The translations under genes were made by a program, and so were the position numbers. From IMG/VR virus record IMGVR_UViG_3300042898_002514: DNA of 64,000 bases; one strand, given 5' to 3'. This DNA comes from a virus. The notes beneath the pieces were generated by a model. It saw only the letters and a list, made by a program, of their open reading frames with translations. It made no database searches and had not been told where the DNA came from. Every line of letters starts with the position of its first letter. Position 1 is the first letter of the stretch. This document shows, in pieces, positions 1 through 10,206 of the stretch.

Positions 1-66
1 CACAGAGGTAGTTGCGCTTCGCTGTTAACGAAGATGTCGTACGTTCGATCCGTACTCGGGGAGCCA
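1..66 (+). tRNA. tRNA-Asn(GTT), 5' truncated by window edge
   Basis: Anticodon arm ttcg-ctGTTaa-cgaa, T-loop GTTCGATC, 3' GCCA. Confidence 0.85.
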
Positions 67-72
67 GACAAT

Positions 73-146
73 GTATCTCTAATGTAATGGCAGCATCACA
101 GTCTCCAAAACTGTTCGTCGGGGTTCGAGTCCCTGGAGGTACGCCA
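73..146 (+). tRNA. tRNA-Trp(CCA)
   Basis: Acceptor gtatctc/gaggtac, acagt-ctCCAaa-actgt, GTTCGA, encoded CCA. Confidence 0.92.
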
Positions 147-154
147 AACAATTT

Positions 155-229
155 GCACGATTCGTCTATCGGTTAGGACGCTGCCCTTTCAAGGCGGAAA
201 GACGAGTTCGATTCTCGTATCGTGTACCA
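155..229 (+). tRNA. tRNA-Glu(TTC)
   Basis: gcacgat/atcgtgt, ctgcc-ctTTCaa-ggcgg, CCA. Confidence 0.93.
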
Positions 230-236
230 ATATACC

Positions 237-310
237 GCGGGATTAGTTTAATGGTCAAACGAAACCTTGCCAAGGTTTAGTCAGGAGTTCGATTCTCCTA
301 TCCCGCTCCA
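237..310 (+). tRNA. tRNA-Gly(GCC)
   Basis: gcgggat/atcccgc, aaacc-ttGCCaa-ggttt, U73, CCA. Confidence 0.93.
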
Positions 311-313
311 TAT

Positions 314-405
314 GCCAGCGAGACTTGACAGTCAGAGAGTCCTTATAAGACTTTTAGCGCCAGATTAGCGTTCTTGAGAGGGTTTGATTCCCTCCGCTGG
401 TACCA
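314..405 (+). tRNA. atypical tRNA with TAT anticodon (Ile?) and long variable arm
   Basis: gccagcg/cgctggt, gagtc-ctTATaa-gactt, ~20-nt variable arm, T-loop TTTGATT, ACCA. Confidence 0.75.
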
Positions 406-411
406 CACCAT

Positions 412-489
412 ATAGGGATGGCAGAGAGGCCCAATGCAACAGTCTGCAAAACTGTAAACCCGTGGGTTCGAATCCCACTCCCTATTCCA
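412..489 (+). tRNA. tRNA-Cys(GCA)
   Basis: ataggga/tccctat, acagt-ctGCAaa-actgt, U73, CCA. Confidence 0.92.
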
Positions 490-493
490 ATAT

Positions 494-570
494 ACCCCTG
501 TACGCTAATTGGTAGTGCGGGTAGACTTAAAATCTGCTGGATGGCGGTTCGAATCTGCCCAGGGGTACCA
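494..570 (+). tRNA. tRNA-Leu(TAA) with short variable loop
   Basis: acccctg/caggggt, gtaga-ctTAAaa-tctgc, 5-nt variable loop, ACCA. Confidence 0.85.
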
Positions 571-577
571 ATCAACC

Positions 578-632
578 AGTCTTGGACACGCAGACTTTAA
601 AGCGATGTGGGAGTAGGTGGAAGCCCTGCACC
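578..632 (+). ncRNA. candidate small structured RNA (two hairpins)
   Basis: agtct/agact hairpin plus gtagg-TGGAAGC-cctgc hairpin with a T-loop-like 7-nt loop, in a spacer between tRNAs. Confidence 0.3.
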
Positions 633-638
633 TAATAT

Positions 639-728
639 GGAAGTATGGCTGAGCATGGCTTAAGGCAGCAGTCTTGAAAACTGAAGGCTCGAAAGGGTCC
701 GTGGGTTCGAATCCTACTACTTCCGCCA
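639..728 (+). tRNA. tRNA-Ser(TGA)
   Basis: ggaagta/tacttcc, cagt-ctTGAaa-actg, long variable arm, GCCA. Confidence 0.93.
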
Positions 729-732
729 ATTT

Positions 733-806
733 TCCCGGATAATTAAATGGTATAATAATCGGCTGATAACCGGTCTTCGCAAGTTCGATTCTTGCTCTGG
801 GAACCA
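733..806 (+). tRNA. tRNA-Ile(GAT)
   Basis: tcccgga/tctggga, atcgg-ctGATaa-ccggt, ACCA. Confidence 0.92.
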
Positions 807-827
807 ATTTTTAAAATGGAGAATGAC

Positions 828-848
828 ATGAAACGAGGTAAACTCTAG
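828..848 (+). CDS. putative leader peptide MKRGKL
   Basis: GGAG Shine-Dalgarno at 818-821; ATG AAA CGA GGT AAA CTC TAG; stop overlaps a strong hairpin. Confidence 0.5.
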   Translation: MKRGKL

Positions 849-912
849 TGTCATCCTAGACCCCCGTATGGTCCTGGATGGCACGTAAAAGAAAATATTT
901 ACGATCCATCCA
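848..912 (+). promoter_or_regulatory. mutually exclusive hairpins upstream of tRNA-Lys
   Basis: A: 848-856 pairs with 876-884. B: 875-881 pairs with 906-912 and 884-889 with 898-903, covering tRNA nt 1-3. Confidence 0.55.
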
Positions 913-984
913 CGCTAAACTTTAGTGGCGAAGTACCCGGCTCTTAACCGGACTAACTGAGTTCGATTCTCAGAGCGTGGACCA
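910..984 (+). tRNA. tRNA-Lys(CTT)
   Basis: ccacgct/agcgtgg, ccgg-ctCTTaa-ccgg, ACCA. Confidence 0.9.
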
Positions 985-987
985 TAT

Positions 988-1063
988 GGGAGTATAGTGA
1001 AATGGTTATCACAGCAGACTTTTAATCTGCCAGTTCCGGGTTCGAGTCCCGGTGCTCCTACCA
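988..1063 (+). tRNA. tRNA-Lys(TTT)
   Basis: gggagta/tgctcct, gcaga-ctTTTaa-tctgc, ACCA. Confidence 0.93.
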
Positions 1064-1144
1064 TAGACAAACACATTAGAAGCCTTCGTGACTGTGGGCG
1101 AGTAGGTCTCTAAGTCGTTTCCGACTAGTGTGTTTTTCTATGGT
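1060..1144 (+). ncRNA. conserved-stem/variable-loop element copy 1
   Basis: accatagacaaacacattag ... ctagtgtgtttttctatggt, ~20-bp stem enclosing ~45 nt. Confidence 0.6.
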
Positions 1145-1189
1145 TAGTATCAGAAGATGTGATCGAAACAGGTGTACTAGTCATACACA

Positions 1190-1253
1190 ATGTCGTGACC
1201 GGAGGATGAGAAGTCGCAAGAGTAGGCCTGACCGCTAGAGGGTAGCGACACCA
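1190..1253 (+). ncRNA. candidate CCA-ending structured RNA (GTGACC..GATGAGAAG..CCGCTAG motif, short form)
   Basis: tgtcg/cgaca closing stem followed by CCA; motifs shared with 4530-4731. Confidence 0.45.
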
Positions 1254-1337
1254 TATAAAAACACATTAGGCCTGATCATAGATCATCGCGGGTATAGTGC
1301 CTTCCGAGCCGCGGACTTGAGTGTGTTTTTATATGGT
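1250..1337 (+). ncRNA. conserved-stem/variable-loop element copy 2
   Basis: accatataaaaacacatt ... agtgtgtttttatatggt, 18-bp stem enclosing ~52 nt. Confidence 0.6.
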
Positions 1338-1409
1338 AACGTAGCATAATGGTCGTGCACCTCCTTCATACGGAGCAAGGTGCTGGTTCGAATCCAGCCG
1401 TTACCACCA
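1335..1409 (+). tRNA. tRNA-Met or Ile2 (CAT)
   Basis: ggtaacg/cgttacc, ctcc-ttCATac-ggag, ACCA. Confidence 0.85.
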
Positions 1410-1412
1410 AGT

Positions 1413-1609
1413 TTTGTAAGTGTCAGCAAGAGAAAGACTCGCTAGGAAGATTCTTCGAAGGTCAACCTAGTGCAAAAGTAGGGCGGGTTCGAGTCCCGTA
1501 AAAGCAGCGGAGCACCTATGTCAAGTATTCCAAGTGATGTACCACCTCCCGTCCGGACCAGTGCAATCGGGTGAATGGTAGAGATTAAAGTGGCTCTACT
1601 ACTTACAAA
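1413..1609 (+). ncRNA. candidate ~197-nt ncRNA with internal T-loop hairpin
   Basis: Ends pair (tttgtaagt/acttacaaa); internal gcggg-TTCGAGT-cccgt and several hairpins; no long ORF. Confidence 0.55.
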
Positions 1610-1618
1610 TTCAATTAT

Positions 1619-1694
1619 CTCTCTAAAGTGTTATCTGGTTGCATCCGCGGTTTGGGGCCGTGTGGTCTAGGTTCGAATCCTAGTAGGGAGACCA
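1619..1694 (+). tRNA. tRNA-Pro(TGG)
   Basis: ctctcta/tagggag, cgcgg-ttTGGgg-ccgtg, ACCA. Confidence 0.88.
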
Positions 1695-1702
1695 GTTTCT
1701 GT

Positions 1703-1776
1703 TGGGGGTTAGTTAAATGGTATAACCGCGGATTTTGATTCCGCTATTAAAGGTTCGATTCCTTTACCCTCTGCCA
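1703..1776 (+). tRNA. tRNA-Gln(TTG)
   Basis: gcgga-ttTTGat-tccgc, 1-72 mismatch, GCCA. Confidence 0.92.
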
Positions 1777-1783
1777 AATTTAT

Positions 1784-1860
1784 CGGACCGTAATTCAATT
1801 GGATAGAAAGCAAGTCTTCGAAACTTGAGGTTGGGAGTTCGAATCTCTCCGGTCCGGCCA
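1784..1860 (+). tRNA. tRNA-Arg(TCG)
   Basis: cggaccg/cggtccg, caagt-ctTCGaa-acttg, GCCA. Confidence 0.9.
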
Positions 1861-1876
1861 TATAAAGGAAAATGCT

Positions 1877-2044
1877 ATGAAAACAATTACATTTAAAAAT
1901 AGATTCAACAATGAGCGAGTGGTCTGTAATGATCCCAAGGCTGTACAAGTAATTGACGGCATTGAGTACCTGTTGGTCAGCAAGACCATTCAAGATAGAA
2001 AATTTCTAATGCGTAAAGATGCATTGGAGAAGATTAAAACATAG
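1877..2044 (+). CDS. hypothetical protein (55 aa, MKTITFKNRFNNERVVC...)
   Basis: AAGGA SD; fills the gap between tRNAs; below ORF-track cutoff. Confidence 0.65.
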   Translation: MKTITFKNRFNNERVVCNDPKAVQVIDGIEYLLVSKTIQDRKFLMRKDALEKIKT

Positions 2045-2050
2045 ATCAAT

Positions 2051-2124
2051 GTTGTTCCTAGTGTAGTGGCTGCACAACTGTCTGTGAAACAGTTAGAGAG
2101 GGTTCGATTCCCCGGTTCAACCCA
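2051..2124 (+). tRNA. tRNA-His(GTG)
   Basis: actgt-ctGTGaa-acagt, G-1:C73, two acceptor mismatches, CCA. Confidence 0.82.
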
Positions 2125-2140
2125 ACAAAGTAGAAATATC

Positions 2141-2545
2141 ATGGAACAAGTAAAAATATTAAACACATTAAAGGGATCTGTTCGTAAGTTCGAAGAATTA
2201 CTAGGACGATCATTGTACAAGGCAGAAGCAGACGACTCAGTATTGACACTGTATCTGTCCAAGACAAACTATGTAAGATTCCAACATCACCAAGATTGTT
2301 GCGAAAGTGTTTACATAGAAGACATATGTGGTGACCTCGATGACCTTGTGGGAGCACCACTAGTTGAAGCTGAAGAAGTTTCTGACTATGAAGGTGAAGC
2401 TACAGGAGACGAGTCTTACACATGGACATTTTACAAGTTTGCTACACGCAAGGGATTTGTAACTGTTCGGTGGTATGGTTCCAGCAATGGATACTATTCC
2501 GAAAGTGTCAGTGTTGATGTAGTTGATACTACTATAAAGGATTAA
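2141..2545 (+). CDS. conserved phage hypothetical protein (HHQDCCE ... SNGYYSE motifs)
   Basis: ORF track; start moved to first ATG after tRNA-His. Confidence 0.8.
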   Translation: MEQVKILNTLKGSVRKFEELLGRSLYKAEADDSVLTLYLSKTNYVRFQHHQDCCESVYIEDICGDLDDLVGAPLVEAEEVSDYEGEATGDESYTWTFYKFATRKGFVTVRWYGSSNGYYSESVSVDVVDTTIKD

Positions 2546-2546
2546 T

Positions 2547-2622
2547 GCAACTTTAGCTGATGTGGTCATAGCGGCGGTTTGAAGAACCGTTGAACCAGGT
2601 TCGATTCCTGGAGGTTGCACCA
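2547..2622 (+). tRNA. tRNA-Phe(GAA)
   Basis: gcaactt/aggttgc, gcggt-ttGAAga-accgt, ACCA. Confidence 0.92.
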
Positions 2623-2630
2623 AGACAAAT

Positions 2631-2646
2631 GCGAGAATGGTGGAAT
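2631..2646 (+). pseudogene. 5' remnant of a tRNA-Leu-like gene
   Basis: gcgagaatggtggaat resembles the 5' end of tRNA-Leu at 4027 (gcgcaagtggtggaat), then breaks off into AT-rich sequence. Confidence 0.5.
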
Positions 2647-2660
2647 TTAATAAATATTAT

Positions 2661-3224
2661 ATGAACATATTATTCCTTCCAATTGATATTGAAATTCCAA
2701 AGATTGATACATCAAAAATACAGTCTACAATTAACGTCATCAACAACCTAACCTACATAAAAACTGCAGAGTATCAACAGTATTGGGATACTTCTAGAAT
2801 TACTGAAACAGTTGATGATACTTTAAAATCTGTACTAGATCAGTTGCCTATAAGCAAAGTAACAAATGTATATTATAAAGAGCAAAGACAAGCTGTGTCA
2901 CCTCATTACGATGTATATCCAAATATGAAATTTGAAGAAGGAGAATACACTAATATTTTAGATAACGAACCTGCAGGGTATCGTCTAGTCCTAGAAGGGT
3001 CCACTGATGTACTTTATGTTAAAAGTGGAGGCACGTTTAAGTTAGCAGAATTGCCATCTGTGCCTTGTTGTTATCTTTTAAATACCACAGCAGGGCTACA
3101 CATGCTCAAGGATGATCCGGGCAGAAAGATTATCTATATTAGAGGATTTATTGATACAGCAAGGCATCAGACGCTGATAGAAAAAAGTCTCAAACGTTAT
3201 AAAAATTTAGCAATTATTGCATAA
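2661..3224 (+). CDS. 2OG-Fe(II) oxygenase-like protein, paralog family A
   Basis: HYD...H motif, N-term ILFLPIDIEIP, C-term SLKRYKNLAI; TAAATA just upstream. Confidence 0.65.
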   Translation: MNILFLPIDIEIPKIDTSKIQSTINVINNLTYIKTAEYQQYWDTSRITETVDDTLKSVLDQLPISKVTNVYYKEQRQAVSPHYDVYPNMKFEEGEYTNILDNEPAGYRLVLEGSTDVLYVKSGGTFKLAELPSVPCCYLLNTTAGLHMLKDDPGRKIIYIRGFIDTARHQTLIEKSLKRYKNLAIIA

Positions 3225-3228
3225 CATT

Positions 3229-3303
3229 GCCGCCTTTGTATAATAGAGAATACAGCTCTCTTCCAAAGTGCGAATAGGAGTTCGATTCCTAGAGGTTGCA
3301 CCA
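3229..3303 (+). pseudogene. chimeric pseudo-tRNA (TCC-like loop; 3' end copied from tRNA-Phe)
   Basis: Acceptor and T stems mispair; 3280-3304 matches 2599-2623 at 24/25 nt. Confidence 0.7.
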
Positions 3304-3348
3304 ACTAAGTTGGACTCTTAGAACTCTACATAATTAATAAATACCAAC

Positions 3349-3912
3349 ATGCAAAACTTTTATAAACACTTTCCAGAAATAGATAATGTATATTGGACTA
3401 ACTATTTTTTGAAAGAATTCATACCAAAATATAAAATTTTTGAACAATTGTCTAGTCCTTTATATATGATGTATTTTAAAAAAGATTTTTATAAAGATTT
3501 AGAAATATTAAAACTTAGTTCGTTGCTAGTTAGTAAACTAAAATTTCCACCGATTGAATATTTTTCAATATTTAAACACACGTATTCCCAGGCCATTCAT
3601 GCTGATGGTAAATCAACATTGAGATATGCAAGCTTCAACTTACCTCTCGTGGGGTTTGAAGGGACAAGGATGTGTTTTTATAATACAAAATCAAATGTTA
3701 TTCCTAAAGTAGCAGATGCTTATTATTTTAAAGAAGATGATGTATGTCTTGCTACAGAACTAGAAGGCAAGAATGAATGGACATTAGTAAACAGTTCAAT
3801 CCCACATAATATTGTGAATGTAGATTTTAATAATCCTAGAATAACAGTATGCATTAGATTTAATGGTAATCCAAAACTTGAGGATCTAATAACAAATGAA
3901 ATTCAATCCTAA
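3349..3912 (+). CDS. 2OG-Fe(II) oxygenase/cupin-like protein, paralog family B
   Basis: IHAD...IPHNIVN...RITVCIRF; TAAATA upstream; stop codon lies in a tRNA 3' remnant. Confidence 0.65.
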   Translation: MQNFYKHFPEIDNVYWTNYFLKEFIPKYKIFEQLSSPLYMMYFKKDFYKDLEILKLSSLLVSKLKFPPIEYFSIFKHTYSQAIHADGKSTLRYASFNLPLVGFEGTRMCFYNTKSNVIPKVADAYYFKEDDVCLATELEGKNEWTLVNSSIPHNIVNVDFNNPRITVCIRFNGNPKLEDLITNEIQS

Positions 3913-3923
3913 GGACGGCACCA
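3902..3923 (+). pseudogene. orphan tRNA 3' end (T-loop half + acceptor strand + CCA)
   Basis: ttcaatcct-aaggacggc-acca; complementary (one bulge) to gccgcct at 3229. Confidence 0.55.
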
Positions 3924-3944
3924 AAAAATATTTTAAAATAACTG

Positions 3945-3973
3945 TTGACAAGATAACGTAATGACTATATAAT
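3945..3973 (+). promoter_or_regulatory. sigma70-type promoter
   Basis: TTGACA-17-TATAAT with AT-rich upstream tract. Confidence 0.85.
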
Positions 3974-4026
3974 AGTTACATACTAAGCAATTAGTAATGT
4001 TCATTAAAAATTTAAAGTAAGATTTT

Positions 4027-4110
4027 GCGCAAGTGGTGGAATGGTATACACGATGGTCTTAGAAGCCATTGCCGAAAGGATTGAGAGTTCGAGTCTCTCC
4101 TTGCGCACCA
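4027..4110 (+). tRNA. tRNA-Leu(TAG)
   Basis: gcgcaag/cttgcgc, atggt-ctTAGaa-gccat, long variable arm, ACCA. Confidence 0.93.
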
Positions 4111-4193
4111 TATTGAAACATATTAAAGATAGGGTTGTAACGGTTCATTGAACTTTAGTACATACCGTGGTAGTTAGTGTGTTTCAATATGGT
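4107..4193 (+). ncRNA. conserved-stem/variable-loop element copy 3
   Basis: accatattgaaacatattaa ... ttagtgtgtttcaatatggt, 20-bp stem enclosing ~47 nt. Confidence 0.6.
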
Positions 4194-4203
4194 AAAGAAT
4201 TTT

Positions 4204-4278
4204 GCCTGGTTAGCTCAGGGGTAGAGCGTCTCGTTTACACCGAGAGGGTCCGCGGTTCGAAACCGTGACCAGGTACCA
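4204..4278 (+). tRNA. tRNA-Val(TAC)
   Basis: gcctggt/accaggt, tctcg-ttTACac-cgaga, ACCA. Confidence 0.93.
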
Positions 4279-4297
4279 CTAGTAGAAAGAAGACTGT

Positions 4298-4438
4298 ATG
4301 ATACCCAAAGAAATTATAGACCAGGCATACCGAAATATTCCTAACAAAGTGGGGTTTGCTGTCAATTGGAATTTTACGCCGACTTGGCGTGGTGTGAGAT
4401 ATTACTGGTATAAATTACTACGTAAAGCAACAAGATAA
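4298..4438 (+). CDS. hypothetical protein (46 aa)
   Basis: MIPKEIIDQAYRN...; fills the gap between tRNA-Val and tRNA-Ser. Confidence 0.5.
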   Translation: MIPKEIIDQAYRNIPNKVGFAVNWNFTPTWRGVRYYWYKLLRKATR

Positions 4439-4439
4439 T

Positions 4440-4527
4440 GGAGCATTGGCCGACCGGTTAAGGCAACAGATTGCTAATCTGTCACTGCGCAAGTGGTGAG
4501 TAGGTTCGATTCCTACATGCTCCGCCA
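4440..4527 (+). tRNA. tRNA-Ser(GCT)
   Basis: ggagcat/atgctcc, acaga-ttGCTaa-tctgt, long variable arm, GCCA. Confidence 0.93.
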
Positions 4528-4529
4528 GA

Positions 4530-4731
4530 ACGTTCCGAGTGTCTTCGGATAGTGTGACCCGCACGATGAGAAGTAGTGTGACAACTACGGGTGGTAGTCT
4601 TTAAACCCAAAGGCCGCTAGCAATGCGAGAACGGTCCCTGTCGGGAAGCGGGTGGAAGGTACGAGTGAGAGGTATGATAGCGTCATATCTTTCTGTACTA
4701 TAATTACCGCCGGGGGACGTCAGAGCAACCA
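4530..4731 (+). ncRNA. candidate ~200-nt structured RNA (GTGACC..GATGAGAAG..CCGCTAG motif, long form)
   Basis: acgttcc/gggacgt closing stem, many hairpins, GC-rich, ends in ACCA. Confidence 0.55.
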
Positions 4732-4752
4732 GATTTTAATAAAGGAAACATA

Positions 4753-4965
4753 ATGAAACCAGGTCCAAATTACAAGATGTCATCTTTGACTAAAGCAAGT
4801 CTAGCAATGAGTAGAGTTCTAGATCCTCACAAGCGAGGTGAGTGGAAACGTGCCATGATTGATGCAGAGCTATGTGCCGCTGTTCAACCCAAGCGTGAAA
4901 CACGCAAACCGGGCAATGGTAATTTTACCACCCATGCATCTGGGACCGTATCTTCAGGAAGTTGA
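4753..4965 (+). CDS. hypothetical protein
   Basis: AAGGAA SD, 70-aa ORF. Confidence 0.65.
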   Translation: MKPGPNYKMSSLTKASLAMSRVLDPHKRGEWKRAMIDAELCAAVQPKRETRKPGNGNFTTHASGTVSSGS

Positions 4966-4966
4966 T

Positions 4967-5257
4967 ATGAGCAAGGGATCTAAAGCAAGACCCTTTAGTG
5001 TCAGCCAGCGTGAGTTTGACAATAGATGGGATACAATTTTTCGCAAGAGTCCTCAAGAAGTGCAAGATGCAGTTCGAGAAGATGAAGAATTTAACAGGAT
5101 TGATACTATGCAAGTACGAGTAAAAGAAGATGAAAGTAAAATCGGATCTTGCGGTTGCGGTCGTTCGCCAACCGGCAAGTGCATCGGTTGGCACGGACTA
5201 ACCGAAGAAGCATTTAAAGAAAAACTTCAAGAGTATAAACTCAACGAAGGTAAGTGA
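4967..5257 (+). CDS. CDGSH-type iron-sulfur-binding domain protein
   Basis: CGCGRSPTGKCIGWH resembles the CxCx2S-x-CDGxH motif. Confidence 0.65.
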   Translation: MSKGSKARPFSVSQREFDNRWDTIFRKSPQEVQDAVREDEEFNRIDTMQVRVKEDESKIGSCGCGRSPTGKCIGWHGLTEEAFKEKLQEYKLNEGK

Positions 5258-5263
5258 AATATT

Positions 5264-5339
5264 GGGGGATTGGTATACTTGGCTAACACACCTGGTTTGC
5301 AACCAGGAGCAAACGGTTCGAATCCGTTATCCTCCACCA
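5264..5339 (+). tRNA. tRNA-Ala(TGC)
   Basis: G3.U70 pair, cctgg-ttTGCaa-ccagg, ACCA. Confidence 0.93.
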
Positions 5340-5345
5340 AGCATT

Positions 5346-5419
5346 GCCCTTATAGTTAAATGGTATAACGGCGGTTTTGTAATCCGCAGTTTGCAGTTCG
5401 ATTCTGTGTAGGGGCACCA
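5346..5419 (+). tRNA. tRNA-Thr(TGT)
   Basis: gccctta/taggggc, gcgg-tttTGTaat-ccgc, ACCA. Confidence 0.9.
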
Positions 5420-5429
5420 ATATAGTCAA

Positions 5430-5464
5430 AAGATGTTGACAAACATCTTGTATAGTGCTATAAT
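5430..5464 (+). promoter_or_regulatory. sigma70 promoter with extended -10 and an inverted repeat over the -35
   Basis: TTGACA(5436)-17-TATAAT(5459), TG at the extended -10 position; aagatgtt-gaca-aacatctt palindrome. Confidence 0.85.
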
Positions 5465-5470
5465 AGTTTT

Positions 5471-5717
5471 GTTGTGTAGCAATACACAACCGGCAAAGTG
5501 AAAGGTAGATGAGAGAAGACACTACTGTTTGGCTTCATGCCAAATGGAACTTAACTCCAAATACTCTGAAAAAGTATCCGTGTCATTGTGTTCCGGCCCC
5601 AAAAGATATTTGTTTATTGATTACCGGAAATATAGTGACCCCTGTGGATTGTATATTGAGCATTGTTATTTGCACATTGTCCAGTCTTTTACTTGACCTT
5701 TCACTGAACCGTTTTTT
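5471..5717 (+). ncRNA. candidate ~245-nt sRNA/leader with 7-nt periodic UUG tract
   Basis: Starts at predicted TSS; agtgaaaggt/acctttcact long-range stem; U-tract end; TTG at 5649, 5656, 5663, 5670, 5677. Confidence 0.6.
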
Positions 5718-5731
5718 AACCTGAGGAAAAT

Positions 5732-5977
5732 ATGACATCAAGATTAACATCAGAATTAGCAGTAGAACAGATAGGCAATAGGTTTGACTTGGTACTAGTT
5801 GCCAGTCAGCGAGCCCGAGAGTTAAAAAACGGTTCAATGCCCAAAGTCGCTGAACCAGGCAAAACATTTATTTCTACAGCACTTCGAGAGATTGAAGAAG
5901 GCAAGTATACCTATAAAGATTATATTAATAAATTACCAAAAAAACGTAAAGGACAACGAGATGAATATTTCACTTAG
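5732..5977 (+). CDS. rpoZ: RNA polymerase omega subunit
   Basis: IGNRFDLVLVASQRARELKNG...ALREIEEG signature; GAGG SD. Confidence 0.9.
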   Translation: MTSRLTSELAVEQIGNRFDLVLVASQRARELKNGSMPKVAEPGKTFISTALREIEEGKYTYKDYINKLPKKRKGQRDEYFT

Positions 5978-6533
5978 AAAAGCCAGCGCCCTACAAAACA
6001 GCATCAATGATGCTATCAAGGGCATTAAAATCACAACATCGATTGATCTCAATGAATTTCAAGATGTAGCAGTAGAACTAAAGAATGCCAACGATACGCT
6101 GTTTAACAACGACAGTCGGAGACAACGCCTGCTGTTGGCCTTGTATAACATTCGTGGTCTTGTGGGCAGTGCCAACGCACAAAGCGGCATTGATTTGAAA
6201 TTGGCCACTGCTGCCTTTGTGGACAAACGTGTTGCTCAACTTGAAGGTCTTGTAGTAGATCCTGTAACTAATCTTGCCGTGATCAACGGTAAGTTGGACA
6301 AGATTCGCAACGACAAGAGCGAAAGTAGCCGTAGCCGTATCTATGGATTTAGTGACACAGTGTCTACTAATGTCATCGGTCACGAACAGCTAGATGTGAT
6401 TAGTACAGAGATTAAAAATCTCAAGAAACAAAAGCAGAAACTCAACGATGAAGTACTTGAGTTAAATATCAAAACAGAGATTCCACTCAGTGAAGAAGTA
6501 GTGGCAACATTGCAATCAGAAGGTTTAGTTTAA
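5961..6533 (+). CDS. hypothetical coiled-coil protein
   Basis: 190-aa ORF from ATG 5961. Confidence 0.8.
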   Translation: MNISLRKASALQNSINDAIKGIKITTSIDLNEFQDVAVELKNANDTLFNNDSRRQRLLLALYNIRGLVGSANAQSGIDLKLATAAFVDKRVAQLEGLVVDPVTNLAVINGKLDKIRNDKSESSRSRIYGFSDTVSTNVIGHEQLDVISTEIKNLKKQKQKLNDEVLELNIKTEIPLSEEVVATLQSEGLV

Positions 6534-6535
6534 AA

Positions 6536-6737
6536 ACCCGTGATCCCGTACACGTAATAAACGGGGGTGGGGCAGTCACCATAGAGAGCGCCGGGTATTC
6601 AATGCTATGACCATTAGTTCTCTGAGTTAAGGGATACTAGAACGCATTGGGTGAGGTTTAGCACCTTTCCAGAAGAATAAATGTTATGGACAGAGTAACC
6701 GCTCAGTTCGGGGCTTATGTGGTGTAAGTAGCCGGAC
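6536..6737 (+). ncRNA. candidate ~200-nt structured RNA
   Basis: Non-coding GC-rich gap with stems cccgt/acggg, ggtg/cacc, caatgc/gcattg, ttcgg/ccgga. Confidence 0.45.
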
Positions 6738-6850
6738 ACTTTATTAGAACAAATTAGAATCTTGTAGAAATACTTGATTAGGTTTGGCTTCCCCGGAGCT
6801 CTTTAGCATAGCTATAACTTTTAATATGCCTTAGTTTGTTTTAATAAAGT
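6738..6850 (+). ncRNA. conserved-stem/variable-loop element copy 4 (divergent)
   Basis: actttattagaacaaatta ... tagtttgttttaataaagt, 19-bp stem; core AACAAATTA/TAGTTTGTT covaries with copies 1-3. Confidence 0.5.
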
Positions 6851-6853
6851 TAT

Positions 6854-6929
6854 CGCAGGATGGAGAAGGTGGTATCTCGGAAGTCTCATAAGCTTCAGAT
6901 CGTCGGTTCGACTCCGACTCCTGCAACCA
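6854..6929 (+). tRNA. initiator-type tRNA-Met(CAT)
   Basis: C1.A72 mismatch, gaagt-ctCATaa-gcttc, ACCA. Confidence 0.88.
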
Positions 6930-6934
6930 ATATT

Positions 6935-7084
6935 ATGAAATTATTTGAAGCAACAATCAGAGTCAACGGCAAAGAATTCAAGGATCGTGTTGGTGCAGAA
7001 ACAGCACAGGAAGCAATGAAGCTTCTGCAACAGAGATACGGTCCTAGAGCAGTGCCCTATGTTCCTCATATGATTCCCAATTAA
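6935..7084 (+). CDS. hypothetical protein (49 aa)
   Basis: MKLFEATIRVNG...; between two tRNAs. Confidence 0.6.
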   Translation: MKLFEATIRVNGKEFKDRVGAETAQEAMKLLQQRYGPRAVPYVPHMIPN

Positions 7085-7086
7085 TT

Positions 7087-7163
7087 CGGAGTGTGGCGCA
7101 GTCTGGTAGCGCACCTGGTTTGGGACCAGGGGGTCCAAGGTTCGAATCCTTGTACTCCGACCA
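7087..7163 (+). tRNA. tRNA-Pro(TGG), second copy
   Basis: cggagtg/tactccg, cctgg-ttTGGga-ccagg, ACCA. Confidence 0.93.
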
Positions 7164-7176
7164 ATTTTTTAAATTT

Positions 7177-7773
7177 ATGAAAATAACAAAATGTAATCTA
7201 TTTCCAATTTCACTTTTTGAAGTTTCAGAGTTTTTGACTGTAACTCAGTGCAATGATATTGTCACTTACATACGAGGATTACCTAAAAAACCTTATCCGG
7301 CAATGACTGGGAAATCGTTTACTACATTTAATATTTCTAATAGATTATTAGAAGACATTCAACAACATGTAAAATCATGTGCTAATATGTTATCATCATT
7401 ATCTGATATTGTGTTAGAATATGAAAAAACATCTGGTTACAACTGTGGTAAACTAGGTAATTCTTGGGCTAGTTTTCAATATAAAGATAGTGCATTATTA
7501 ACCCATACTCATTATTCTAGTTTAATATCGGGCGTATTGTATTTGCAAGTAGATAATAATAGTAGTAAAATTATTTTTAATAATGTTAATCCTTTTTTAG
7601 AATATCTACCTAAAAAACATCTTACAACATATACATACAATAAAATGAGTTTCGAACCCACTGTTGGGAAATTAATAGTATTTCCCAGCTGGTTACCACA
7701 TGGTTCAGACACTGAGTTGAATAAGTCGGACGAACGAATAATTATTAGTTTCAATACTGAATTAATAATTTAG
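7177..7773 (+). CDS. putative 2OG-Fe(II) oxygenase (TIGR02466-like)
   Basis: HTH..S.ISGVLYL...GKLIVFPSWLPH...ERIIISFN. Confidence 0.85.
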   Translation: MKITKCNLFPISLFEVSEFLTVTQCNDIVTYIRGLPKKPYPAMTGKSFTTFNISNRLLEDIQQHVKSCANMLSSLSDIVLEYEKTSGYNCGKLGNSWASFQYKDSALLTHTHYSSLISGVLYLQVDNNSSKIIFNNVNPFLEYLPKKHLTTYTYNKMSFEPTVGKLIVFPSWLPHGSDTELNKSDERIIISFNTELII

Positions 7774-7808
7774 TCAGTTTTCTACCAAATTTTTTATAAA
7801 AGGCAACA

Positions 7809-7994
7809 ATGACAAAAGCAGAAAATCAAGCGGCAACAGAAGCAGCGATGGCTGAGTTTCTAGCCAAAGGTGGTGTAGTTCAACAACTAAAACCAAATCA
7901 AAGTGGTAGGGTCGAAGGAGAATCATATTCAATGTGGTCTAAGAAAAAGCCTTCAACTTCACCTTTGGCCAATCCTCCAGAAGACGACGAATAA
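7809..7994 (+). CDS. hypothetical protein
   Basis: AAGG SD; EFLAKGGVVQ motif. Confidence 0.7.
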   Translation: MTKAENQAATEAAMAEFLAKGGVVQQLKPNQSGRVEGESYSMWSKKKPSTSPLANPPEDDE

Positions 7995-8008
7995 ATAGAA
8001 ATAACAAT

Positions 8009-8082
8009 GCGGGGTTCGTATAGTGGTAATACCTCAGATTTCCAATCTGATGCGGACAGTTCGATTCTGTTACCCCGCTCCA
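8009..8082 (+). tRNA. tRNA-Gly(TCC)
   Basis: gcggggt/accccgc, tcaga-ttTCCaa-tctga, TCCA. Confidence 0.93.
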
Positions 8083-8086
8083 AATT

Positions 8087-8665
8087 ATGCACACAGTTAT
8101 TGACAGAAACGATACCTTTAGAAAATTTGACTTTAGTTCTACGATCGGTAAAGAAGATAATACAACTGCCATAGGCATTATAAAGAATATTGTCGCCGAT
8201 GGGAACTATTTTAAAAATAGTCCAAAGTATCAAACCCAAGAAAACATATTTGCAAGACCCGAAGCTGTATGGTTAAAGTACCGTATGAGTTTCTTGTTCA
8301 GTGTGTTTATGTATCTTGGGCGAGAAGTAAAAGTCAATAACATGATGGCCTGGGCATTTATGACCAATCTAGAAGGTGTAGAAGATCGTGAAAAGCTATG
8401 GCACGATCATTGGCATCCTACAAATCCAAATGCCAAGATGCTGAGTGGTATATTTTATCTGCATATTCCCGAGGATGTAAAAGACCGTGATTATTGCGGA
8501 ACTGAAATGGCGCCAAATGGACCCCAAGGCGAAGGAAAGTTCTTTGTTCGCCCTACTGATTACAGTTGGTTGTTGTATCCCAGTAATCAATGGCATCGAC
8601 CGGGCGTGGTCCAAAGCAATGATTATAGATTTATCCTAGCAGTGGACGTAGAATATCTACCGTAA
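8087..8665 (+). CDS. 2OG-Fe(II) oxygenase-like protein
   Basis: WHDH..LSGIFYLH..GTE..LLYPSNQWHRP..RFILA. Confidence 0.7.
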   Translation: MHTVIDRNDTFRKFDFSSTIGKEDNTTAIGIIKNIVADGNYFKNSPKYQTQENIFARPEAVWLKYRMSFLFSVFMYLGREVKVNNMMAWAFMTNLEGVEDREKLWHDHWHPTNPNAKMLSGIFYLHIPEDVKDRDYCGTEMAPNGPQGEGKFFVRPTDYSWLLYPSNQWHRPGVVQSNDYRFILAVDVEYLP

Positions 8666-8727
8666 TAAAACTGTAACAGTCTTTTTGTCTAAAAGACATA
8701 AGTACGCATATAAACTGAAAGAAAAAA

Positions 8728-9162
8728 ATGTTATCCTTTATCACCAATCTCACTGACCCACTCCTAGATTACATAAAGGATGATCCTGTTCGCCCTGAGT
8801 TGCCTAAGGAGTTTAGGGTAGGAAAGAACAAGTTTGTGAGTGCTCTAGTTGATGACATTCCTCGAGCTATGGTATGTGTGAGTTTACACGATTTCATACC
8901 GGAAGATGTCGATGATTTGATCAAAGATACGGAAGTGCCAACCGCAGCAATTTTCTACACCATTTGGAGTTACGCCCCGGGGGCTGGTGTAGAATTGCTG
9001 AGAGCAACTGTAGCAGAAATACAAAAGCAATTTCCCAGCATAGAACGCTTTGTCACTCTGAGTCCAAAGACCGATATGGCCAAGAAGTTTCATACCAAAA
9101 ATGGCGCCGGAGTTTTTAGAGAAAATTTAGACACCGTAAACTACGAGTACGATGTAAAATAA
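8728..9162 (+). CDS. malonyl-CoA-decarboxylase C-terminal-like (GNAT-fold) protein
   Basis: AIFYTIWS..GAG..LL....FVTLSP motif. Confidence 0.6.
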   Translation: MLSFITNLTDPLLDYIKDDPVRPELPKEFRVGKNKFVSALVDDIPRAMVCVSLHDFIPEDVDDLIKDTEVPTAAIFYTIWSYAPGAGVELLRATVAEIQKQFPSIERFVTLSPKTDMAKKFHTKNGAGVFRENLDTVNYEYDVK

Positions 9163-9219
9163 CAACTCTCCCTGACAGGCGGAGTATAATGAGCCAAATA
9201 GTCTGTCATCAACAACACG

Positions 9220-9263
9220 GCCCTGCCCTCTAAGACATAGTACTTAGGGCAGGGTTTTTCTTT
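9220..9263 (+). terminator. intrinsic terminator
   Basis: ccctgccct...agggcaggg stem followed by T-tract. Confidence 0.7.
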
Positions 9264-9265
9264 AT

Positions 9266-9340
9266 CCGGCCTTAGTATAATGGATAATACAGCGGTCTTC
9301 TACACCGTGAATATGGGTTCGATTCCTGTAGGCCGGACCA
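9266..9340 (+). tRNA. tRNA-Arg(TCT)
   Basis: ccggcct/aggccgg, gcggt-ctTCTac-accgt, ACCA. Confidence 0.92.
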
Positions 9341-9341
9341 C

Positions 9342-9415
9342 GCTCTTGTAGTAAAATGGTATTACACAGTCTTGGTAAGACTGAATTTCAAGTTCAATTC
9401 TTGGCTAGAGCACCA
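9342..9415 (+). tRNA. tRNA-Thr(GGT)
   Basis: gctcttg/ctagagc, cagtc-ttGGTaa-gactg, ACCA. Confidence 0.88.
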
Positions 9416-9416
9416 C

Positions 9417-9445
9417 TTGACAACTTAAAGGAAAGACAGTATAAT
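9417..9445 (+). promoter_or_regulatory. sigma70 promoter (leaderless mRNA)
   Basis: TTGACA-17-TATAAT; ATG starts 7 nt after the -10 box. Confidence 0.85.
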
Positions 9446-9451
9446 AGTCGT

Positions 9452-9676
9452 ATGTACAAAGTAATAGAAAAACAAAGCTCAACAGAGTTTGCCAATTTGG
9501 ATTTGGCCTTGACATTTGCCAAAGAATTAAATGTGTTTGTTACCATTCAAGGTGGCGAATTTGAAATCGTAGGGGTGTTTGGTGTAGACAGCATCAAAGA
9601 CGGAAAGTGCCCAGATGGCGTTAAATACGATTGGAATAAATCGAGCCGTATCGGCCGTGTTAAAAAGGAAAGATAA
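9452..9676 (+). CDS. hypothetical protein
   Basis: MYKVIEKQ... ORF starting at the predicted TSS. Confidence 0.75.
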   Translation: MYKVIEKQSSTEFANLDLALTFAKELNVFVTIQGGEFEIVGVFGVDSIKDGKCPDGVKYDWNKSSRIGRVKKER

Positions 9677-9683
9677 AAACTAG

Positions 9684-9902
9684 ATGGCTAAAGAAGATAT
9701 AATCGAATTAACAGGTGTTGTAGAAGAAGTTCTGCCGGGCAGTATGTATAAAGTAAAAATTGAAAACATGCCCAACTTGATGCTGTGTTATACCAGCGGT
9801 AAACTCAAGCAACACAAGATTCGTATCATTCTTGGTGATCGTGTCAAGATAGAAGTTAGCCCTTACGATCTGTCAAAAGGTCGTGTTTCTTATAGATTGT
9901 AA
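9684..9902 (+). CDS. infA: translation initiation factor IF-1
   Basis: MAKEDIIE..GVVEEVLP...SGKL..HKIRIILGDRVKIEVSPYDLSKGR. Confidence 0.95.
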   Translation: MAKEDIIELTGVVEEVLPGSMYKVKIENMPNLMLCYTSGKLKQHKIRIILGDRVKIEVSPYDLSKGRVSYRL

Positions 9903-9945
9903 CAAAAGGCATTATGCCGTATAGAGAAAGAACGGGTACAAAAAA

Positions 9946-10206
9946 ATGAGCATTAGTGATAAAAAGATCTTGGAAGTTGCCAATATATGCTACGCAAATG
10001 TAGCAGGACAATTTGCAATGTTCTGTAATTCAAAGTATCGTGGTCCAAACTTTACATGGTCTGATTTTGCTAGCATGATGGAAAAACAGGCTGAGACATG
10101 GATGATGATTCATCGTGTGCGTGGCTGCAAGGAAGACATTAACAAACAAGCAGCTCAGTTTGCAAGAGAAATTGCAGAACGATTGATTATTAGATCTGAA
10201 TTTTGA
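9946..10206 (+). CDS. hypothetical protein
   Basis: 86-aa ORF in co-directional run. Confidence 0.65.
   Translation: MSISDKKILEVANICYANVAGQFAMFCNSKYRGPNFTWSDFASMMEKQAETWMMIHRVRGCKEDINKQAAQFAREIAERLIIRSEF

Follow-up and report, generated by a model that had tools for sequence, protein, structure and literature searches.

A conserved two-state leader RNA with a lysine-codon mini-ORF precedes paired tRNA-Lys genes in uncultured lake phages and may act as a ribosome-read switch of tRNA maturation

Organization of the Lys Module in a Phage tRNA Array

The window, that is the whole 64,000-nt stretch of DNA analyzed here, carries a phage tRNA array with 26 tRNA genes in bases 1-9415, and the remainder encodes myovirus-like structural proteins and other phage genes (T4 gp9/10-like N-terminus, Mtd_N, UvdE). 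In this array, a 103-nt spacer separates tRNA-Ile(GAU) (733-806) from tRNA-Lys(CUU) (910-984). The module described here (window 818-1063) comprises a Shine-Dalgarno (SD) motif, a 6-codon ORF, a bistable leader RNA, tRNA-Lys(CUU) and tRNA-Lys(UUU). A sequence-only reading of the same DNA had already placed the SD, an ORF encoding MKRGKL, a hairpin A, a helix B and the tRNA-Lys genes here, and all of these positions were found to be exact by sequence, folding and ARAGORN. The features of the module, with the names used throughout, are the following.

818-821, + strand: Shine-Dalgarno-like GGAG, seen in the sequence 6 nt upstream of the ATG; it belongs to region 1 and is predicted to pair with 854-856
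824-829, + strand: core of region 1, the bases just 5' of the ATG and the first two bases of the ATG, predicted to pair with 848-853 (helix 1:2)
828-848, + strand: leader mini-ORF of 6 codons (MKRGKL), with ATG at 828, TAG at 846-848 and Lys codons at 831-833 (codon 2) and 840-842 (penultimate)
848-856, + strand: region 2, the 5' strand of hairpin A, whose first base is the G of the TAG stop (folding and covariation)
859-873, + strand: segment L, the top of hairpin A (a 7-nt loop flanked by GACC and GGUC stem strands), antisense to 980-992
875-884, + strand: region 3, the strand shared by hairpin A (as its 3' side) and helix B (as its 5' side) (folding, three-way covariation)
884-903, + strand: inner hairpin of B (6 bp, 8-nt loop), able to persist in both folds (folding)
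906-912, + strand: region 4, the last 4 leader bases and nt +1 to +3 of the tRNA, forming the 3' strand of helix B (folding, covariation)
910-984, + strand: tRNA-Lys(CUU), anticodon CTT in the DNA (ARAGORN; Rfam 30.7 bits, just over threshold)
980-992, + strand: segment J, consisting of G72, A73 and CCA of tRNA-Lys(CUU), a 3-nt spacer and nt +1 to +5 of tRNA-Lys(UUU); partner of segment L
988-1063, + strand: tRNA-Lys(UUU), anticodon TTT in the DNA (ARAGORN; Rfam 68.5 bits)

Positions 807-909 had no family match in Rfam, and cmscan in E-value mode over positions 1-10000 returned tRNAs only.

Apart from the module, the tRNA-Ile(TAT) called at window 314-405 is unusually long for an isoleucine tRNA (92 nt, anticodon at position 31) and may represent an insertion or a mis-call. 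Window 1064-1334 contains long near-perfect hairpins that abut tRNA ends and share a stem core with variable interiors; such hairpins take the place of the Lys leader upstream of a G1-type tRNA-Lys(CTT) in L015, L016, L042 and other related loci. Window 1410-1618 is a conserved structured spacer of about 200 nt with a T-arm-like GGGTTCGA-type motif and without a tRNA or tmRNA call or an Rfam match. A similar element is found in one relative, L001, at 3835-4060 (- strand), and ARAGORN called a permuted tmRNA elsewhere in that locus, at 7247-7678.

Distribution and Genomic Context of the Module

Exact-pattern scans of IMG/VR recovered many uncultured viral contigs, some of more than 300 kb. A first set of 35 unique leaders was obtained from tRNA-anchored scans, and folding and mask statistics were calculated on 33 versions of this first set. 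The leader-motif scan gave at least 116 unique matches, of which 5 were chance matches and 111 were true modules, with 107 used for codon statistics. More than 100 distinct versions of the module were found on uncultured (IMG/VR) phage contigs, all of them preceding tRNA-Lys, and its carriers are many uncultured giant lake phages. Its parts follow a constant order (SD, mini-ORF, switch, tRNA-Lys(CUU), tRNA-Lys(UUU)). Among the matches listed, the next tRNA was tRNA-Lys(CUU) in 109 of the 111 true modules and tRNA-Lys(UUU) in the other 2, and tRNA-Lys(UUU) was the second tRNA in 100 of the 111. One exception to this gene order, L086 (IMGVR_UViG_3300046804_006442), has the leader followed by an 88-nt tRNA-Lys(TTT) call and then by tRNA-Lys(CTT), and the 3' strand of helix B stops 3 nt short of the tRNA in this locus.

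No comparable leader was detected before non-Lys tRNAs among the 1204 tRNAs in these loci, the only hits being false positives inside tRNA-Cys. Near and distant searches of the cultured phages in INPHARED matched tRNA bodies only and recovered no leader, and a search for relatives through a neighboring protein (ORF 2637-3224) gave no match. A motif scan of bacterial genomes returned mostly chance matches and at least three true copies on short contigs that had been assigned to Crocinitomicaceae, Bacteroidetes and Polynucleobacter MAG bins. These copies are probably mis-binned phage DNA; among the matches listed they occurred only on short contigs, and a chromosomal bacterial origin, or a host assignment from the MAG bins, was set aside.

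What lies upstream of the module differs between loci: in the window it is a further tRNA gene, and elsewhere it may also be a consensus promoter (TTGACA-N17-TATAAT), a stem-loop resembling a terminator, or a basic ORF of 42 codons that is itself conserved. The consensus promoter lies 20-25 nt upstream of the SD in about 10 relatives (L024, L025, L029, L040, L041, L049, L052, L054 and others), and because it sits just upstream of the leader, the Lys module heads its own transcript in these phages. This promoter type argues for a sigma-70-type host rather than a Bacteroidota-like one, despite the MAG bin labels. The 42-codon ORF is Lys/Trp-rich and was found in at least 15 relatives besides L001 (4297-4425, - strand, in the latter); its stop (TGA or TAG) is located 1 nt before the ATG of the mini-ORF, which suggests termination-reinitiation coupling into the leader. 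It had no significant Pfam match, and the window lacks it. L001 (4440-4510 and 4810-4870, - strand), L021, L022, L057 and L061 also share a recurrent stem-loop of about 65 nt that combines a GC-rich stem with a large loop of A/T-rich sequence and a run of T. Copies lie between neighboring tRNA genes as well as immediately 5' of the leader or of the 42-codon ORF, and the element resembles a terminator or processing element.

Conserved Lysine Codons in the Leader Mini-ORF

Among the matches listed, to which all codon counts in this section refer (n = 107), the mini-ORF has 6, 7, 8 or 9 codons in 53, 44, 9 and 1 versions, respectively, and is always in frame. An SD-like purine motif precedes the ATG in 104 of 107 versions. 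The mini-ORF always ends at TAG, and the G of this stop is always the first base of hairpin A. Codon 2 encodes Lys in every version (AAA in 96, AAG in 11), and the penultimate codon is AAA in all 107, never AAG, and is always positioned 8 nt before hairpin A. The arrangement recognized in the sequence-only reading, an SD and an in-frame ORF with Lys codons upstream of tRNA-Lys, is therefore conserved in the relatives. The remaining codons are less constrained: codon 3 is Arg in 94 of 107 and otherwise A, P, T, Q, L, D or V, the middle of the mini-ORF is made up of small residues in varying number, and the last sense codon varies most of all (R in 69 versions, L in 23, Q and P in 5 each, S and I in 2 each, and H in 1). 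Codon 2 and the penultimate Lys are the only invariant sense-codon residues after the start.

Two invariant Lys codons are the pattern expected of regulatory codons. At the same time, the presence of AAA without AAG at the penultimate position hints at a constraint at the nucleotide level, and both Lys codons could reflect selection for efficient translation alone. In E. coli, initiation is favored by AAA at codon 2, and termination by a basic residue at position -2 relative to the stop.

The start of the mini-ORF may also be closed by a weaker hairpin. This helix 1:2, in which region 1 would pair with 848-853, would enclose the ORF together with its start site, and it was predicted in 33 of 33 first-set versions at -4.6 to -12.8 kcal/mol. 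Covariation of this helix was not significant, with 435 of 5000 permutations as good in the swap test and weak column counts; it is thermodynamically plausible in all versions and is retained here as a prediction only.

Hairpin A and Helix B Share One Strand

Hairpin A (848-856 with 876-884, and an inner GACC/GGUC stem of 859-862 with 870-873) folds at -19.6 kcal/mol alone, and helix B (875-881 with 906-912, plus 884-889 with 898-903) at -15.1 kcal/mol. Helix B covers leader positions -1 to -4 and nt +1 to +3 of tRNA-Lys(CUU). Folding of the spacer gave z = -3.85 and of the spacer with the first tRNA z = -3.72, and in neither test did any of 200 shuffles do as well. Every one of the 33 first-set versions can form both structures, with energies of -15.7 to -21.1 kcal/mol for A and -7.4 to -15.1 kcal/mol for B, and in each of them helix B joins the end of the leader to region 3 and extends to tRNA +1 or further. 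In a crude energy control, helix B alone ranked 5th of 23 upstream complementarities and was not an outlier. A terminator scan of 807-909 found none, and there was no U-tract after helix B or hairpin A.

Both helices showed compensatory base changes. In a MAFFT alignment, 88.6% of the cells of hairpin A were paired versus 23-54% in slid controls, with compensatory UA/AU and CG/UA/GC changes. In an alignment of 42 diverse modules, 81.6% of helix B was paired versus 35-54% with slid partners; one pair occurred as UA in 19, AU in 14 and GC in 3 modules, and the pair involving tRNA +3 occurred as GC in 16 and UA in 10, showing that tRNA +3 covaries with the leader. As some classes pair one base out of register, MAFFT columns under-count helix B, and alignment-free swap tests were therefore added, in which the strands of each version were compared with the strands of other versions by permutation without correction for shared ancestry. 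Cognate strands paired better than swapped strands in hairpin A (-12.6 versus -9.8 kcal/mol) and in helix B (-9.7 versus -7.3 kcal/mol), with 0 of 5000 permutations as good in either test (ancestry uncorrected), and the swap tests on the first set had the same outcome for A and B.

Furthermore, regions 2, 3 and 4 covary three ways, as (U,A,U) in 14, (A,U,A) in 10 and (C,G,C) in 3, and tRNA +3 changes jointly with its acceptor partner and with the leader. The two alternative hairpins of the sequence-only reading are thus each backed by covarying pairs, including those of the strand that they have in common. Joint change of the shared strand with each partner is what selection on two mutually exclusive helices leaves behind.

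A Second Helix Reaches Both tRNA-Lys Ends

The acceptor end of tRNA-Lys(CUU) is unusual in having C1-G72 and C2-G71. Among the matches listed, leader-linked tRNAs begin with CCA (58), CCC (49) or CCT (2). At least four very different tRNA-Lys(CUU) bodies are found behind the leader, all of which start with C1 C2, and the sister tRNA-Lys(CUU) in leaderless related arrays has the body of the window tRNA with an ordinary G1 end. Judging from these comparisons, tRNA-Lys(CUU) is adapted to the leader.

When the whole module (812-1066) was folded, the minimum free energy (MFE) structure, at -90.2 kcal/mol (z = -6.0, 0 of 200 shuffles as good), was a locked fold in which 862-873, at the top of A, pairs with 980-991. 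The same structure also holds helix B and the 1:2 hairpin, with the SD and the first ATG bases paired to region 2. The duplex between segments L and J (L:J) is mostly 12-16 bp long, at -14.6 to -28.8 kcal/mol in 60 haplotypes. Its swap test gave a cognate mean of -22.2 versus -17.3 for swapped strands, with 0 of 10000 permutations as good (ancestry uncorrected). Taken ungapped from fixed anchors, 83% of L:J positions were paired versus 26-47% when slid, the column counts were concordant, and positions 6-13 showed 2-6 pair types each. In the window's array, no other tRNA 5' junction has an upstream antisense partner as strong as L:J (-21.0 versus -15.9 for the next).

These comparisons identify L:J as a covarying helix that locks the 3' end of tRNA-Lys(CUU) together with the 5' end of tRNA-Lys(UUU). 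The picture is accordingly larger than the one drawn in the sequence-only reading, as it includes L:J as a second lock and a weaker hairpin that is predicted to be able to close the start site of the mini-ORF.

Two Folds of the Precursor and the Effect of Ribosome Masks

Covariation and folding together show that the precursor has two mutually exclusive folds. The open fold consists of hairpin A with its apical stem and two intact cloverleaves, with about 6 single-stranded leader bases before tRNA-Lys(CUU). The locked fold consists of helix B and helix L:J, with both acceptor stems broken and both RNase P sites within helices; in the folding model, region 2 can then fold back on the SD and AUG of the mini-ORF. 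RNAalifold on 42 modules gave the open fold (A and two normal cloverleaves) with abundant compensatory pairs. The single-sequence ensemble minimum was the locked fold in 96 of 97 versions, by 7.1 +/- 2.8 kcal/mol in a model that ignores tRNA tertiary stabilization, and stepwise folding showed that the minimum-energy state depends on transcript length. By these calculations, the open and locked states are both encoded and close in energy.

The effect of a ribosome on the fold was modeled by masking. According to the sequence-only reading, a ribosome stalled at codon 2 would free the tRNA and a ribosome at the stop would favor helix B, and this was reproduced in computed folds of the leader with the first tRNA (33 versions): with a codon-2 stall, tRNA +1 paired with nt 72 at a mean probability of 0.94, and with a ribosome at the stop it paired with region 3 at a mean probability of 0.88. 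Without a ribosome the same RNA was mixed (+1 with nt 72, 0.65; with region 3, 0.32). The prediction did not extend to the full two-tRNA precursor, for which a nearest-neighbor equilibrium model with the codon-2 mask left the locked fold favored in most versions and the locked fold came out ahead whichever mask was applied. Since a codon-2 stall does not by itself tip most variants at equilibrium, any such control must be kinetic or use the tRNA tertiary stability that is absent from the model.

A Proposed Ribosome-Read Switch

We propose that the module is a cis-acting, ribosome-read RNA switch, in which the position of the ribosome on the mini-ORF selects the fold and couples Lys decoding to RNase P access; we put the probability of this reading at roughly 0.5. 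The structure and conservation of the module are firmly established, whereas the odds for translation-coupled gating of RNase P are about even, and lysine specificity is somewhat less likely than such gating.

Translation of the mini-ORF, the choice of fold by the ribosome and the block of RNase P are steps that we infer to work as follows. Hairpin A would form first in transcription, giving the open fold first, because the polymerase completes the partner strands of A earlier than those of B and L:J. A ribosome translating to the UAG at the foot of A would unwind the base of A and free region 3 for region 4; this unwinding would destabilize the top of A, the more stable locked fold would take over, and region 2, once released, could close the start of the mini-ORF. 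A ribosome awaiting Lys-tRNA, either at codon 2 or at the invariant AAA that lies 8 nt upstream of A, would instead hold region 1 and leave region 2 uncovered, and with region 2 uncovered A would stay or re-form and RNase P would be able to cut. Ample Lys-tRNA would thus keep the tRNA-Lys precursors locked, and scarcity of usable Lys-tRNA, through starvation or cleavage by a host anticodon nuclease, would release the phage tRNA-Lys. A hairpin that sequesters the single-stranded 5' leader is known to block E. coli RNase P in vitro and in vivo, from work on a synthetic riboswitch (PMC7897497), and in the Lys module an alternative helix over the 5' leader by the cleavage site is available for both tRNAs (B at the first, L:J at the second). 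tRNA-Lys is also a target of phage defense, and a phage tRNA-Lys can rescue infection (PMC11464382).

In its fullest form, which we put forward tentatively, the module would be a natural double lock, an RNase P-resistant pre-tRNA-Lys from which both species are freed only by stalls on the leader Lys codons, for example after PrrC/PARIS-type cleavage. It would then be an inducible counter-defense and the first natural leader-peptide attenuation of tRNA processing.

The competing explanation that survives best, which we nevertheless consider unlikely, accepts that the mini-ORF is translated and that the ribosome flips the switch, and takes the signal to be general translation activity or a timer, not lysine decoding, with the Lys codons kept for efficient initiation and termination of a very short ORF. 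The effects of AAA at codon 2 and of a basic residue at -2 in E. coli are in line with this, as is the penultimate codon, where 107 of 107 AAA and never AAG among the matches listed would fit a constraint on nucleotide or context better than one on the amino acid. A general signal would leave unexplained why, in more than 100 versions with at least four tRNA bodies, the module was found solely before tRNA-Lys genes, and why the two Lys are the only invariant sense-codon residues after the start among the matches listed while their neighbors vary freely.

It is more doubtful still that the element is RNA only, its alternative folds ordering or delaying the processing of both tRNA-Lys precursors, or storing them in a nuclease-resistant form, without a ribosome and with the ORF-like features as by-products of structure. 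All helices but 1:2 covary, which needs no reference to coding, codon 3 of the ORF is often base-paired with its last codon, and a short motif is repeated within the ORF. Yet the versions retain the ATG, a well-spaced SD-like motif and a TAG in frame, their four length classes are each divisible by three, and codon 2 toggles solely between the two Lys codons. The 42-codon ORF that ends 1 nt before the ATG (at least 15 relatives) and the consensus promoter upstream (about 10) are likewise as would be seen for a translated leader.

A classical transcription attenuator, with intrinsic or Rho-dependent termination before the tRNA genes, is highly improbable. Its trp-type layout is reproduced here in the 1:2, 2:3, 3:4 topology and the leader ORF with regulatory codons, but neither B nor A is followed by a U-tract, the terminator scan was empty in 807-909, and B takes its 3' strand from the 5' end of the tRNA itself. 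The second helix, moreover, reaches 70-80 nt further, into the next tRNA, which would be senseless for a terminator. With no terminator in the leader, transcription termination is not the output.

Least probable of all is a minigene or functional micropeptide, whether lambda bar-like (peptidyl-tRNA drop-off tying up a tRNA) or an active basic hexapeptide, for although the ORF is short (6-9 codons among the matches listed) with an SD, and minigene effects are documented for ORFs of 3-8 codons (PMC2490762), the last sense codon, which sets the tied-up tRNA, is the most variable position among the matches listed, the middle and end of the peptide vary, and covarying antisense helices to both tRNAs would be left unexplained.

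Comparison With Known Systems

The ribosome-read switch that we favor combines elements of several known systems. As in the trp-type attenuators (E. coli trpL, hisL, pheL), there is a short leader with relevant codons and there are mutually exclusive 1:2, 2:3 and 3:4 helices chosen by ribosome position, the role of the ribosome being a proposal, and helix 1:2 a prediction, for the Lys module. The attenuator-like geometry noted in the sequence-only reading stands in these respects, with a leader ORF carrying Lys codons and helices that exclude each other, and departs from the model in its 3:4 helix, which lacks a U-tract and is no terminator. In further contrast to the trp-type systems, region 1 of the Lys module is the start site of the ORF itself, the output is the tRNA 5' end with a second long-range helix that locks a second tRNA, and the genes downstream specify tRNAs where those systems have biosynthetic enzymes. 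Attenuation at the translational level, as in ermC and cat/cmlA, is similar in being post-transcriptional and in that a stalled leader ribosome (here proposed) frees a sequestered site through a swap of hairpin partners. In the Lys module, however, the freed site is an RNase P substrate (tRNA acceptor ends) and not a ribosome-binding site, and the proposed stall signal is a lack of Lys-tRNA and not an antibiotic.

The T-box riboswitches are also cis-acting RNAs, with a state that depends on the supply of a specific tRNA, as that of the Lys module would. In contrast to these, the Lys module has no specifier loop, T-box motif or Rfam RF00230 match (807-909), its sensing would go via the ribosome and not by direct tRNA binding, and T-boxes control synthetase and transporter genes, not tRNA processing. 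The effector principle is shared with a synthetic RNase P riboswitch that responds to theophylline (Ender et al. 2021, PMC7897497), where a leader hairpin hides or exposes the 5' leader and gates RNase P, as proposed here. That device is man-made and ligand-gated, whereas the Lys module is natural and apparently ribosome-gated, invades the acceptor stem and acts on two tRNAs at once. Attenuation acting on tRNA maturation was not known to the sequence-only reading as a described mechanism, and our full-text literature searches likewise found no precedent for natural leader-peptide control of tRNA processing, the synthetic RNase P riboswitch sharing its principle.

Phages are known to invest in keeping lysine decoding alive. 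T4 repairs PrrC-cut tRNA-Lys. In T5, a phage tRNA-Lys acts against PARIS AriB (PMC11464382), and tRNA-Lys is at stake there as it is here. Supply in T5 or repair in T4 is constitutive, whereas supply in the phages carrying the Lys module is seemingly gated by a Lys-codon sensor.

Implications for tRNA Supply in Phages

The supply of tRNA is normally thought to be set at transcription. The comparative evidence presented here points to control of tRNA supply at maturation, by a sensor that reads the codons which the tRNAs decode. If true, access of RNase P would be a new output for leader-peptide attenuation, and the module would be a natural counterpart of the engineered RNase P riboswitch. The module is small (about 250 nt), self-contained and directly testable in vitro and in E. 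coli, and its more than 100 natural variants provide a ready set of compensatory mutants. For the phages themselves, our findings suggest that they may regulate, and not merely carry, the tRNA most often attacked by bacterial defense nucleases.
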